10,234 nt of DNA, taken from the IMG/VR virus record IMGVR_UViG_2681813268_000007; one strand, 5' to 3'. The notes beneath the pieces are model-generated. The model was not told where the DNA came from, ran no database searches, and saw only the letters and a program-made list of their open reading frames with translations. Position 1 is the first letter of the stretch; each line of letters begins with the position of its first letter. A program made the position numbers and the translations under genes. This document shows, piece after piece, positions 1,984 through 4,846 of this stretch. Origin of the DNA: a virus. Its lineage: Duplodnaviria; Heunggongvirae; Uroviricota; Caudoviricetes.

Positions 1984-2069
1984 ACCTGAAAAACGGCACA
2001 GGACGTTAAACGTGCTGGTGGTCAGATGAGTTTGCAGATGTGATGACATATGGTTATTATTCTGCCTCC

Positions 2070-2146
2070 GGCCCTTTAGCTCAGTTGGTCAGAGCGAGCG
2101 ACTCATAATCGCCAGGTCGCTGGTTCAAGTCCAGCAAGGGCCACCA
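2070..2146 (+). tRNA. tRNA-Ile2 (anticodon CAU, lysidine type; formally could read as Met), 77 nt with encoded CCA
   Basis: Cloverleaf: acceptor GGCCCTT/AAGGGCC, D-stem GCTC/GAGC, anticodon loop CTCATAA, T-arm GGTCGCTGGTTCAAGTCCAGC; close to E. coli ileX as recalled. Confidence 0.85.
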
Positions 2147-2147
2147 A

Positions 2148-2224
2148 CCACCACTAGCTCATCCGGATAGAGCATCAACCTTCTAAGTTGACGGTGCGAG
2201 GTTCGAGTCCTCGGTGGTGGGCCA
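2148..2224 (+). tRNA. tRNA-Arg (anticodon UCU, reads AGA/AGG)
   Basis: Acceptor CCACCAC/GTGGTGG, D-stem GCTC/GAGC, anticodon stem TCAAC/GTTGA with loop CTTCTAA, T-stem CGAGG/CCTCG with TTCGAGT loop, G73 and CCA. Confidence 0.85.
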
Positions 2225-2226
2225 GC

Positions 2227-2302
2227 GCCGACTTAGCTCAGCAGGCAGAGCAACTGACTTGTAATCAGTAGGTCACCAGTTCGATTCCGGTAGTCGGCAC
2301 CA
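2227..2302 (+). tRNA. tRNA-Thr (anticodon UGU, reads ACA)
   Basis: Acceptor GCCGACT/AGTCGGC, anticodon stem ACTGA/TCAGT with loop CTTGTAA, T-loop TTCGATT, A73 and CCA; resembles E. coli thrU as recalled. Confidence 0.8.
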
Positions 2303-2305
2303 TAT

Positions 2306-2380
2306 GCGGGCATCGTATAATGGCTATTACCTCAGCCTTCCAAGCTGATGATGCGGGTTCGATTCCCGCTGCCCGCTCCA
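2306..2380 (+). tRNA. tRNA-Gly (anticodon UCC, reads GGA/GGG)
   Basis: Acceptor GCGGGCA/TGCCCGC, anticodon stem TCAGC/GCTGA with loop CTTCCAA, T-stem GCGGG/CCCGC, U73 discriminator (typical of Gly) and CCA; matches my recollection of E. coli glyT. Confidence 0.85.
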
Positions 2381-2386
2381 GTCAGA

Positions 2387-2432
2387 GTCTTTCAGTCTGC
2401 GATGATGGGAAATCCCGGAGTGACTGAAAGAC
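2387..2432. repeat. perfect 11-bp inverted repeat (GTCTTTCAGTC / GACTGAAAGAC) with 24-nt spacer
   Basis: Direct inspection; arms at 2387-2397 and 2422-2432. Confidence 0.8.
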
Positions 2433-2439
2433 GTTTAAG

Positions 2440-2512
2440 TTATGAATGATCGCCTTTTTTTGCAAAATTGCTGTGCAGAAATACTAACCTTCGGGCGTGC
2501 GATCATTCATAA
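2440..2512. repeat. perfect 14-bp inverted repeat (TTATGAATGATCGC / GCGATCATTCATAA) with 45-nt spacer
   Basis: Direct inspection; arms at 2440-2453 and 2499-2512. Confidence 0.8.
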
Positions 2513-2605
2513 GCACTCTGCTTTTATTCCGATTAACTGTGGGTGGTTTGTTGGATAGAGTGTGAGGTGTACTGGCAATAGCGGACACTACCATTTGTTC
2601 TTTTT

Positions 2606-3424
2606 TTAAGCAGCCATCTGATGATATTTTTCCCTGAAGGCTGCCGGGGAGATATTCCCCAGACGAGAGTGACGACGCTGACGATTGTAGAAAATCTCAA
2701 TGTATTCCCGTATTACTGAGATGGCTTCATCCCGGTTATTAAAACGATAGTGGCTCAGGCTCTCATTTTTCAGCGTTCCCCAGAAGCTTTCCATCGGAGC
2801 GTTGTCGTAACAGTTACCTTTACGCGACATTGATGTTTTCAGACCAGACTGCTCCTGTATGACCCGGTAATCGTATGCGCAGTACTGTGAACCTCGATCA
2901 GAGTGGTGGATTAGCCCGGCAGGTGGGCGCTGGCTCCTGAGCGCCATAAACAGGGCTTTACCTGTCAGCTCTTTTGTCATGCGCTCTCCCATGGCGTAGC
3001 CGACAATTTCGCACGTATAAACATCTTTGATGCCAGCGAGGTACAACCATCCCTCCTGTGTGGCAACATACGTCAGGTCCGCCACCCAGACCTGATTTGG
3101 TGCTGTAGGAGCGAACGTCTGGTTCAGCAGATTTGGCGCAACTGGCAGATTGTGGTTCGAGTTCGTAGTCGCTCTGAACTTGCGTTTCTGCTTACAGCGT
3201 AGCCTTAGCTCCTTACGAAGACGTGCCAGTCGGTCACGACCAACGATGATGCCATTCTCTGCCAGCTCCGTCTGGAGCCGCCGGGTTCCATATGTTTCGC
3301 GAGTGCGGATATGTGCCACCTTAATCTCCAGTTTTAGCCGCTCATCACTTTGTTTTCTGTCTGAGGGTTCATGCTGTACCCAGTTGTAATAACCGCTCCT
3401 GGATACACCAAATACCTGACACAT
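2606..3424 (-). CDS. IS3-family transposase OrfB (DDE catalytic domain); in vivo made as OrfAB fusion by -1 frameshift, so the true frame extends upstream to about 3510
   Basis: 272-aa ORF with IS3-type OrfB sequence (MCQVFGVSRSGYYNW..., ending ...YDNAPMESFWGTLKNE...GNISPAAF); the -1 frame upstream of its Met reads SNSVFCTGVAEKYALIEQWRQQFPIEA, continuous with it. Confidence 0.85.
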   Translation of the reverse strand: MCQVFGVSRSGYYNWVQHEPSDRKQSDERLKLEIKVAHIRTRETYGTRRLQTELAENGIIVGRDRLARLRKELRLRCKQKRKFRATTNSNHNLPVAPNLLNQTFAPTAPNQVWVADLTYVATQEGWLYLAGIKDVYTCEIVGYAMGERMTKELTGKALFMALRSQRPPAGLIHHSDRGSQYCAYDYRVIQEQSGLKTSMSRKGNCYDNAPMESFWGTLKNESLSHYRFNNRDEAISVIREYIEIFYNRQRRHSRLGNISPAAFREKYHQMAA

Positions 3425-3459
3425 CGCTTCAATGGGAAATTGTTGTCGCCATTGTTCGA

Positions 3460-3762
3460 TTAACGCGTATTTTTCAGCGACTCCTGTGCAAAATACGCTG
3501 TTGCTTTTTTTAATATATCTCGCTCAAGGCGAGCTTCATTTAACGCCTTACGCAGTTGCAGAATTTCAGATTCCAGTTCAGCCACCGTGCGGGAACCAGG
3601 AGTACCGAGCCCTTTTCTGGCGGCGGTAACCCATTGTCCTAAAGTGCCTTCAGGAAGAGATAATCGGGAAGCGCCTTCACTGATCGAAAGTTGATTTTCA
3701 AGAACCGTTCTGACAGCTTCGGCTTTGAACTCTTTAGAGTAACGTTGGGTTTTTCTGCTCAT
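3460..3762 (-). CDS. IS3-family transposase OrfA (helix-turn-helix / leucine-zipper subunit), 100 aa
   Basis: MSRKTQRYSKEFKAEAVRTVLENQ... is typical IS3/IS600 OrfA; ATG at 3762 with GGAG-type RBS on the minus strand. Confidence 0.85.
   Translation of the reverse strand: MSRKTQRYSKEFKAEAVRTVLENQLSISEGASRLSLPEGTLGQWVTAARKGLGTPGSRTVAELESEILQLRKALNEARLERDILKKATAYFAQESLKNTR
3505..3511 (-). other. programmed -1 ribosomal frameshift slippery site (A7 run followed by G on the minus strand) joining OrfA to OrfB
   Basis: Plus-strand T7 at 3505-3511; OrfA zero-frame reads TTA AAA AAA GCA; OrfB-like sequence continues in the -1 frame. Confidence 0.7.
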
Positions 3763-3826
3763 TATTAGCTCCTTCTGATGCCATTCTATTTCAGGAAGGA
3801 GTGTCCGTTAAACTCAGGCTACCTCA

Positions 3827-3837
3827 NNNNNNNNNNN
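3827..3837. other. assembly gap (11 N) abutting the last base of the IS600-like element
   Basis: Run of n characters in the sequence. Confidence 0.95.
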
Positions 3838-3921
3838 CTGAAAAACGGCACAGGACGTTAAACGTGCTGGTGGTCAGATGAGTTTGCAGATGTGATGACA
3901 TATGGTTATTATTCTGCCTCC

Positions 3922-3998
3922 GGCCCTTTAGCTCAGTTGGTCAGAGCGAGCGACTCATAATCGCCAGGTCGCTGGTTCAAGTCCAGCAAGGGCCACCA
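3922..3998 (+). tRNA. tRNA-Ile2 (CAU), second copy
   Basis: Identical to 2070-2146. Confidence 0.85.
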
Positions 3999-3999
3999 A

Positions 4000-4076
4000 C
4001 CACCACTAGCTCATCCGGATAGAGCATCAACCTTCTAAGTTGACGGTGCGAGGTTCGAGTCCTCGGTGGTGGGCCA
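4000..4076 (+). tRNA. tRNA-Arg (UCU), second copy
   Basis: Identical to 2148-2224. Confidence 0.85.
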
Positions 4077-4078
4077 GC

Positions 4079-4154
4079 GCCGACTTAGCTCAGCAGGCAG
4101 AGCAACTGACTTGTAATCAGTAGGTCACCAGTTCGATTCCGGTAGTCGGCACCA
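4079..4154 (+). tRNA. tRNA-Thr (UGU), second copy
   Basis: Identical to 2227-2302. Confidence 0.8.
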
Positions 4155-4157
4155 TAT

Positions 4158-4232
4158 GCGGGCATCGTATAATGGCTATTACCTCAGCCTTCCAAGCTGA
4201 TGATGCGGGTTCGATTCCCGCTGCCCGCTCCA
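4158..4232 (+). tRNA. tRNA-Gly (UCC), second copy
   Basis: Identical to 2306-2380. Confidence 0.85.
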
Positions 4233-4846
4233 GCGAGATTTGAGACGAAGGTTGTTATTTGCACTGACACAATATTGTGTGGGAATGTCTGACTCCTTAC
4301 CATCTCCTGTTCTGTGATGTTGTTTTGTTGCAGTTCCAGTGCTCTTTTTTCAGCACCAGAATGGTGCATTGTCGGTCAGGTTACGTAGTGAACCTCTGGC
4401 AGGGGACTGATGATTCATCATTCTGGTGTTGTAAATATCTCTTCGGACAACTTACAAAATATTCTAAGCAAACCCCGGGAACACACTCTTAACTGCCTTG
4501 GCTGGCGGTTTTTTGTACAGCGCTCGGTATGTGTGAGCTGGAAATCAGATTTTGCATGGACTGGAATCATGCTGTTATTTAGGGGCGAAGAACTGGCTTT
4601 TTCTTCCGCCTTCTCACCAGTAACGATTAGAAAAATAATGAAATGCCCCCCTCCGGGGAGGAGGACCGTAGAAAAAAGGACCCGCCAGCAAAAACATTGG
4701 GGATGAACAGCTTTCGCTACTCAGATTGCTGGCGGGTAAAGTTCCTCATGAATTAAGAATGCTACGCGATCTTTTTTAATGGAAATGAAAATTATTGTCA
4801 ATTAGTCGTGCGTGTTTTTTCATACAATATTGGTAAAGGTGATTCA

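Follow-up and report, generated by a model that had tools for sequence, protein, structure and literature searches.

Two identical tRNA blocks on one scaffold

The window, a 10,234-nt stretch of phage DNA considered here over its whole length, carries the same four-tRNA block twice, on either side of an IS600 element and a run of N. Was this block duplicated within one prophage, or does the scaffold join two prophages that each own a copy? The window corresponds to the entire public draft record CXEW01000162.1 (GCA_001260755.1), N run included, and locus L016 is identical to it. A Logan contig of run ERR028703 (L017), apparently from the same isolate, covers positions 6005–10182 only. Searched for by exact match, the TerL protein was found only in the record itself and in one Logan contig of this run, an isolate-specific SNP accounting for so few matches; relatives of the second prophage were retrieved with the portal fragment as query in place of TerL. 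The structural evidence stems from closed genomes of other strains.

Direct string comparison revealed the two blocks to be identical over 396 nt, an exact repeat far beyond chance, and ARAGORN called four tRNAs in each, with the anticodons CAT, TCT (Arg), TGT (Thr) and TCC (Gly). Rfam agreed, with RF00005 scores of 56–70 bits where the gathering score is 29, marking these as bona fide tRNA genes. The two identical blocks reported in the preliminary description are confirmed. The CAT tRNA is labeled tRNA-Ile in closed genomes, i.e. it is of the Ile2 type. To the right of the two copies, the flanks are 31% identical without gaps over 182 nt, which equals random sequence, while the left side of copy B ends at the N run. 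In closed genomes, both copies are identical over a longer unit of 412 bp (1970–2381 in copy A), whose flanks again drop to random level (23% and 30% identity). Comparison of the upstream flanks placed the start of this homology within the 3′ arm of the hairpin behind the Q-like gene; copy B of the window thus lacks the first 16 nt of the true repeat.

The surroundings of the two copies largely matched the earlier account (Table 1). Copy A is followed by 181 bp and the insertion element, precisely as claimed, and copy B by the leader of the lysis cassette, which measures 679 rather than 680 bp. The gap does comprise 11 N, but it does not take the place of the last base of the insertion element, as had been thought: the N run starts right after position 3826 and IS600 is complete. 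This completeness follows from alignment with two further IS600 copies, which required no gaps; over its full length, the element aligned without gaps and with 99.4–100% identity to annotated copies carrying the label 'IS3-like element IS600 family transposase, programmed frameshift'. Its two ORFs encode 100 and 272 aa.

Table 1. Features of the window, with the evidence or details for each.
Feature	Position	Strand	Evidence or details
Terminal 104 nt of IS1; scaffold begins inside	1-104	-	99% identity with IS1 copies of closed genomes
Early-right genes, prophage remnant 1	156-1880	+	ORF list, Pfam labels on identical genes, RefSeq annotation of homologous loci
orf70	156-368	+	
DUF1367	440-1039	+	
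YbcO/DUF1364	1039-1329	+	
DUF1133 Q-like antiterminator	1326-1880	+	
Terminator-like hairpin 3′ of Q-like gene	1960-1981	+	CCCGC-TTTAT-GCGGG and T7 run, read from sequence
Copy A of tRNA block	1986-2381	+	Ile2(CAT) 2070-2146, Arg(TCT) 2148-2224, Thr(TGT) 2227-2302, Gly(TCC) 2306-2380; PGAP names
181-bp spacer, start of alternative short leader	2382-2562	+	tRNA-Gly-to-spacer junction 100% identical in 522 complete E. coli genomes
Complete IS600 (IS3 family), 1264 bp	2563-3826	-	orfA 3460-3762, orfB 2606-3424
Run of 11 N, scaffold gap	3827-3837	.	Read as a very probable false join
Copy B of tRNA block, prophage remnant 2	3838-4233	+	tRNAs 3922-3998, 4000-4076, 4079-4154, 4158-4232
Lysis cassette leader, prophage 2, 679 bp	4234-4912	+	Terminator-like hairpin 4846-4872; 98-aa ORF 4410-4706
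Late genes, prophage remnant 2	4913-10175	+	Gene calls and Pfam labels of this very record
Holin	4913-5128	+	
Lysozyme	5128-5625	+	
Rz	5622-6086	+	
HNH	6129-6479	+	
TerS	6601-7095	+	
TerL	7092-8825	+	
orf60	8837-9019	+	
Truncated portal	9144-10175	+	
IS4-family element end, truncates portal; scaffold ends inside	10157-10234 (start approximate)	+	Similarity to uninterrupted portal homologue stops at ~10156

The two halves in closed genomes

In closed S. sonnei genomes, the left part of the window (1–3826) recurs with 100% identity as a prophage remnant next to dbpA/ttcA (L007 and L014, the latter on CP014099.2, named as S. sonnei FDAARGOS_90; PMC5447701). Its IS1 end is contiguous with a full IS1, including the InsA/InsB genes, in L006–L014. 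Beyond IS600, L007 and L014 continue with an IS600 fragment of 255 or 482 bp and tail genes, and a second tRNA block was not found in the next 8 kb. In the intact relatives L001 and L005, the leader that begins with the 181-bp spacer runs uninterrupted to the holin gene.

In the window, IS600 is flanked by GTG on the left and by CTG past the gap, the true right flank having disappeared in the gap. For this very copy, closed genomes show the IS600 fragment, a deletion scar, on the right, and the uninterrupted target in L001 runs on as CTTTCCTTACTG..., not as the tRNA block. IS3-family elements generate target duplications of 3 bp, not of 396 bp. Neither a target-site duplication nor a composite structure that could have duplicated the block is visible (flanks GTG vs. 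CTG).

In E. coli FDAARGOS_943, a 'tRNA-Val' is annotated before this spacer, which had prompted the idea that the left contig is itself a chimera, combining one prophage's tRNA-Gly with another's spacer. This idea was rejected because the junction is perfectly conserved in the 522 complete genomes and the whole of 1–3826 recurs without a mismatch in closed S. sonnei.

The right part (3838–10234) differed by two mismatches in 6,397 nt (99.97% identity) from L018, L019, L020, L025 and L026, a remnant located beside bamE/recN. Among 27 contigs read, all 10 distinct neighborhoods shown had ORF6N and another Q gene, rather than IS600, ahead of the tRNA block. The gene after the portal in closed genomes carries the labels Nterm_IS4 and DDE_Tnp_1.

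L007 and L019 belong to one chromosome, CBDDMI010000001.1, on which the left part occupies 1,947,739–1,951,564 and the right part 889,913–896,309, both on one strand and separated by 1,061,651 bp; the spacing between the two loci is the same in JBEAAD010000003.1. Every closed locus examined contained one tRNA block. Likewise, no closed genome examined had IS600 followed by a second tRNA block or IS600 directly upstream of the right-hand block. The junction of IS600 to the tRNA block was found in 0 of 5,426 complete E. coli genomes, a set that includes invasive-type strains with both prophage types and many IS600 copies. Exact-pattern scans of the genome_contigs and metagenome_contigs collections for an IS600 end 0–30 nt from the tRNA block also returned 0 hits, but carry no weight because these collections lack this prophage, the positive control on the ORF6N side having given 0 as well.

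Origin of the junction

Taken together, the two tRNA blocks are real, but they very probably derive from two different decayed lambdoid prophages, their adjacency across the N gap being a scaffolding error; the finding is therefore an ordinary one, and there is no local duplication of the block. The preliminary description had favored just such an artefact, and the separate remnants 1.06 Mb apart, the missing junction in closed genomes and gap edges at or near repeats all speak for it. On the left, the gap borders on the final base of the multi-copy IS600; its right edge lies 16 nt inside the two-copy 412-bp repeat, i.e. near its boundary without coinciding with it. The accompanying caution that the gap may separate genes of different prophages was correct, given single-block remnants 1.06 Mb apart to which the halves map, the absence of the junction and the repeat-edge gap.

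A plausible course of events would start from two contigs. Contig 1 (1–3826), from the dbpA/ttcA side, would comprise IS1, the Q-like gene, the tRNA block, the 181-bp spacer and IS600, and contig 2 (3838–10234), from the bamE/recN side, the tRNA block, the 679-bp leader, the holin-lysozyme-Rz genes, HNH, the terminase and the IS4-interrupted portal. Reads might have been unable to resolve the shared repeat, and read pairs truly leading from the tRNA block to the prophage 2 leader would also have fitted the tRNA block in contig 1. Such ambiguous pairs would link contig 2 behind contig 1 on the same strand, the very order observed. Greedy extension into the spurious gap may then have proceeded until ambiguity arose, on the left where IS600 ends and on the right barely within the repeat, leaving 11 N. 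Assembler rules such as k-mer offsets and edge trimming yielded no firm derivation of the 16-nt offset or the 11-N length.

The inclusion of the full 1264-bp IS600 in contig 1 hinges on the behavior of the assembler. A short-read draft pipeline in wide use is called greedy and prone to false joins by its own authors, and leaves N gaps (PMC5320598). The supplement text of this Sanger pipeline paper does not contain CXEW, ERR028703 or the GCA number; the draft record may have been made by that pipeline.

Could the tRNA blocks instead truly lie ~1.45 kb apart in this isolate? Such a rearrangement would have involved IS600-mediated transposition and homologous recombination between IS600 copies, setting the late region of prophage 2 beside the IS600 of prophage 1, with ...GGCTACCTCA running on to CTGAAAAACGGCAC. 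Shigella is rich in IS600, IS1 and IS4 and rearranges there; neighborhoods vary among closed genomes (the DNA beyond IS4, for example, differs between L018 and L023/L026), L021 and L027 carry an IS600 of the same orientation in dnaB of prophage 2, 3.3 kb upstream of the tRNA block, and the gap of 11 N is small. Against this stands a junction seen in no closed genome examined and in no complete E. coli genome, as well as the 1-Mb duplication or translocation that would be needed: a single deletion or inversion could not give the left-then-right order, since the right part lies 1.06 Mb upstream on the same strand. It would further have to be a coincidence that an IS600 came to lie only a few bases from the 412-bp repeat's edge, and the 3-bp target duplication to be expected is not seen (GTG to the left of the element vs. 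CTG after the gap), with the caveat that the right flank was lost in the gap.

We consider a real rearrangement highly unlikely, and less probable still an isolate in which an IS600-mediated translocation or large duplication has put the lysis-terminase region of the bamE side directly behind the IS600 of the dbpA side. If true, the latter would leave the isolate with two identical four-tRNA blocks at a distance of 1.45 kb and would restore a Q-tRNA-...-lysis order to a decayed prophage.

Least probable of all is that both junctions are real but lie at two IS600 copies which the assembler merged, 'spacer | IS600' belonging to prophage 1 and 'IS600 | (deleted dnaB..ORF6N) tRNA block' to prophage 2 of this isolate: contig 1 does end exactly at the IS600 terminus, and a deletion adjacent to an IS600 of this orientation, as present in prophage 2 of L021 and L027, could reach the tRNA block, yet an IS600 abutting CTGAAAAACGG would have been bridged by reads, making an N gap needless, the deletion would end at the repeat edge only by chance, and this junction was seen in no genome searched. 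As the halves would still come from different prophages, this counts as a form of the artefact rather than as a local duplication.

Returning to the scaffolding error, the main value of the case is one of caution. Taken as one prophage, CXEW01000162.1 would suggest a tandem duplication of the tRNA block, an IS600 insertion separating its two copies and a single prophage reaching from Q to portal, all of which would be false inferences. Besides IS elements, repeats of a few hundred bases shared between prophages can seed misjoins in short-read drafts. Two decayed lambdoid prophages that share an identical 412-bp tRNA module and are riddled with IS1, IS600 and IS4 are already familiar for Shigella.

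Comparison with known systems

The junction resembles misjoins caused by greedy scaffolding and gap filling (SSPACE/GapFiller; PMC5320598), with an N gap between two blocks and gap edges at or near repeats. The two sides lie 1.06 Mb apart in finished genomes, and the scaffold as such begins in an IS1 end and stops in an IS4 end. What such a misjoin does not explain in detail is the 16-nt offset and the length of 11 N.

The insertion element matches IS600 in Shigella prophage remnants, with the same 1264 bp and minus-strand orfA and orfB, and its insertion site is kept in closed S. sonnei. An IS600 insertion 181 nt after tRNA-Gly was not found in complete E. coli genomes; E. coli FDAARGOS_943 differs in that its IS600 sits 125 nt after tRNA-Gly.

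The tRNA module itself is a well-known cluster of lambdoid phages, which sits between the terminator 3′ of a Q-type antiterminator gene and the lysis genes. Accordingly, L002, L013 and L015 show an unbroken series of Q-like gene, block, leader and holin, and L018–L027 one of Q, ORF6N, block and holin. The module may supply tRNAs for AUA, AGA, ACA and GGA codons in late expression. Across the 12 phage ORFs of the window, ATA, AGA, ACA and GGA occur 7.3, 6.8, 11.8 and 12.7 times per 1000 codons, respectively, somewhat above E. coli averages, although this is a hint only. Blocks 93–94% identical are found in the Escherichia phages vB_EcoS-689R5, vB_EcoM-606R7 and PhiR47_1 and in hundreds of E. 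coli prophages; clusters of this kind appear in E. coli phages as Met/Ile2-Arg or Lys-Thr-Gly blocks. Annotations vary: the second tRNA, Arg(TCT) here, is given as Lys in some relatives, and the fourth as a 71-nt tRNA-Val in some E. coli paralogues. The ileZ-argN-argO cluster of Stx phage 933W is of the kind located between Q and the lysis or stx genes. With such lambdoid clusters, the present one shares both its site (after the terminator, before the holin) and its type of anticodons, serving codons that E. coli seldom uses (AUA, AGA), and nothing essential sets it apart from them.

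The tRNA block repeat and the intervening IS600

Direct comparison within the window showed the blocks at 1986–2381 (copy A) and 3838–4233 (copy B) to be identical over 396 nt. ARAGORN called four tRNAs in each and Rfam model RF00005 matched tRNAs of both (56–70 bits), bearing out the preliminary description of two identical blocks on either side of an IS600-like element and an N gap. At homologous loci, RefSeq annotates the CAT tRNA as tRNA-Ile, i.e. of the lysidine type. To the right of the copies, identity breaks off sharply (31% over the next 182 nt), as the differing flanks described earlier imply; the left side of copy B is interrupted by the N run. 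The reported 181-bp distance from copy A to the element (spacer, 2382–2562) was likewise correct, and the element is a complete IS600, aligning without gaps over 1264 nt, at 99.4–100% identity, to several copies annotated as such. Two details required amendment: the N run starts after the last IS600 base instead of lying on it, and the leader separating copy B from the holin gene measures 679 nt, not 680.

Features of the scaffold and the basis of their assignment
Feature	Position	Description	Basis
IS1 end	1–104	scaffold begins inside it	
tRNA block, copy A	1986–2381	anticodon CAT, Arg-TCT, Thr-TGT, Gly-TCC	ARAGORN
IS600, complete	2563–3826	orfA and orfB on minus strand	ORF list; alignment to annotated copies
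N run	3827–3837	11 nt	
tRNA block, copy B	3838–4233	anticodon CAT, Arg-TCT, Thr-TGT, Gly-TCC	ARAGORN
IS4-family end	about 10157–10234	cuts portal gene short; scaffold stops inside it	

The two halves of the scaffold in closed genomes

Closed chromosomes were retrieved by look-ups of the Q-like protein (1326–1880) and the truncated portal (9144–10175). The left part (1–3826, contig 1) was 100% identical to loci L007 and L014 (the latter CP014099.2, S. sonnei FDAARGOS_90; PMC5447701) and 99.9–100% identical to L006, L008, L010 and L011, where it belongs to a prophage remnant adjoining dbpA and ttcA. In closed S. sonnei (L006, L007, L010, L014; about 12500–13000 of each locus), IS600 runs straight into an IS600 fragment of 255 or 482 nt, beyond which lie the tail genes (minor tail, L, K, I, J, Lom); this is the scar of an IS-mediated deletion in which the lysis and head genes were lost. 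At these closed loci, the 8 kb beyond IS600 contained no second tRNA block. The spacer-to-IS600 junction had no match in complete E. coli genomes but was found in closed S. sonnei genomes and is therefore a genuine Shigella insertion. That contig 1 is itself chimeric was rejected, since its tRNA-Gly-to-spacer junction is common (100% identity in 522 complete E. coli genomes).

The right part (3838–10234, contig 2) differed from L018, L019, L020, L025 and L026 at just two of 6397 nt (5673 and 8379) and lies in a different prophage remnant, adjoining bamE-recN-nadK-grpE. Its genes run in the order DnaB, RusA, 128-aa Q, ORF6N, tRNA block, leader, holin, lysozyme, Rz, HNH, TerS, TerL and a portal gene interrupted by IS4. 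Upstream of the block, each of the ten neighbourhoods displayed, out of 27 contigs, has the ORF6N gene with its own terminator, and none has an immediately adjacent IS600. Within dnaB of this prophage, two closed genomes (L021, 118–1385; L027, 119–1384) contain an additional IS600, in the same orientation as that of the window and 3.3 kb upstream of the block. The leader contains a 98-aa ORF (4410–4706), which some closed genomes annotate as a gene, and, 40 nt ahead of the holin ATG, a strong terminator-like hairpin (4846–4872; 10-bp stem and T-run), suggesting that lysis gene expression needs antitermination.

On a single chromosome (CBDDMI010000001.1, source of both L007 and L019), the left part occupies 1,947,739–1,951,564 and the right part 889,913–896,309 on the same strand, 1,061,651 bp apart; JBEAAD010000003.1 has the same relative arrangement. 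In the closed chromosome, the repeat common to the two prophages is exactly 412 nt long (window 1970–2381), flanked by sequence of random-level identity (23% and 30%). Its left edge falls within a terminator hairpin present just upstream of the block in each prophage, in the 3′ arm (GCGGG). The 5′ arms of these hairpins (window 1960–1981; L019, about 4660–4694) differ, homology setting in with the shared 3′ arm and T-run (GCGGGTTTTTTT), which has the appearance of a module boundary in the mosaic recombination of lambdoid phages.

Origin of the junction

In 5,426 complete E. coli genomes, a set including strains with both prophage types, a 150-nt query fusing the IS600 end to the beginning of copy B had no match covering at least 80% of it; up to 43 places matched the query in one genome. 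Scans of GTDB representative genomes and JGI metagenomes also returned no match, but neither did the positive control, rendering them uninformative. Adjacency of the two blocks is without support in any finished genome examined. Together with the distance between the halves, the absent junction supports the originally favored reading, a scaffolding artefact joining two paralogous lambdoid prophages: copies A and B are real paralogues, one per defective prophage, and the local duplication is almost certainly only apparent.

A real rearrangement in the isolate, including a variant with collapsed IS copies, is improbable. In closed genomes the right part is located upstream of the left, on the same strand, an arrangement from which the order seen in the scaffold could not arise by one deletion or inversion; IS600 would, moreover, have had to land at the repeat edge by chance, and GTG on its left and CTG after the gap give no sign of a target duplication.

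For the false join, a plausible mechanism combines misplaced read pairs with greedy gap filling. Pairs from prophage 2 spanning tRNA block and leader would be equally compatible with the block of contig 1, which is identical, yielding a link with precisely the order and strand observed, and gap filling would then have extended both edges into the gap until ambiguity. Both edges lie at or near sites where read extension turns ambiguous: the final base of contig 1 is that of the multi-copy IS600, and contig 2 starts 16 nt inside the 412-nt repeat. According to the authors of a pipeline widely used for such drafts (PMC5320598), SSPACE and GapFiller work greedily, may introduce false joins and leave gaps of Ns, and a pipeline of this type may have produced the present record. 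The N run equals in length the 11 nt preceding the block in both closed-genome prophages (TTTTTTTATAC; window 1975–1985), possibly because the gap filler trimmed or padded the edges, possibly by chance.

An exact-protein look-up of TerL identified this record as CXEW01000162.1 (GCA_001260755.1; 10,234 bp), matching the window exactly, Ns included. The 8379 difference falls in TerL, and the only further holder of this variant is a Logan contig (L017) of run ERR028703, 100% identical over 6005–10182; this links the record to that run, presumably from the same isolate. With its IS1 and IS4 ends, the scaffold resembles those of short-read drafts, in which assembly breaks at IS copies. Beyond the portal-truncating IS4 lies bamE-recN-nadK in L018–L022 vs. 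raiA-pheA-tyrA in L023 and L026, a gene-order difference that indicates IS4-mediated rearrangement between strains.

The tRNA module among lambdoid phages

Several E. coli genomes contain a paralogous block that differs from that of the window by four mismatches and one gap over its whole length and in which a 71-nt tRNA-Val is annotated in fourth place, where the window has a 75-nt tRNA-Gly (E. coli FDAARGOS_943, L001 4980–5050, counterpart of window 2306–2380); this may be a degraded or retargeted tRNA. Phage ORFs of the window use ATA, AGA, ACA and GGA at 7–13 per 1000 codons, modestly above the usual level in E. coli, which is consistent with the usual codon-supply explanation but no proof of it. 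Escherichia phages carry blocks 93–94% identical to that of the window. The four-tRNA block is the known lambdoid late-region tRNA cluster, related blocks in many E. coli prophages likewise sitting between a Q-type gene and the holin gene.
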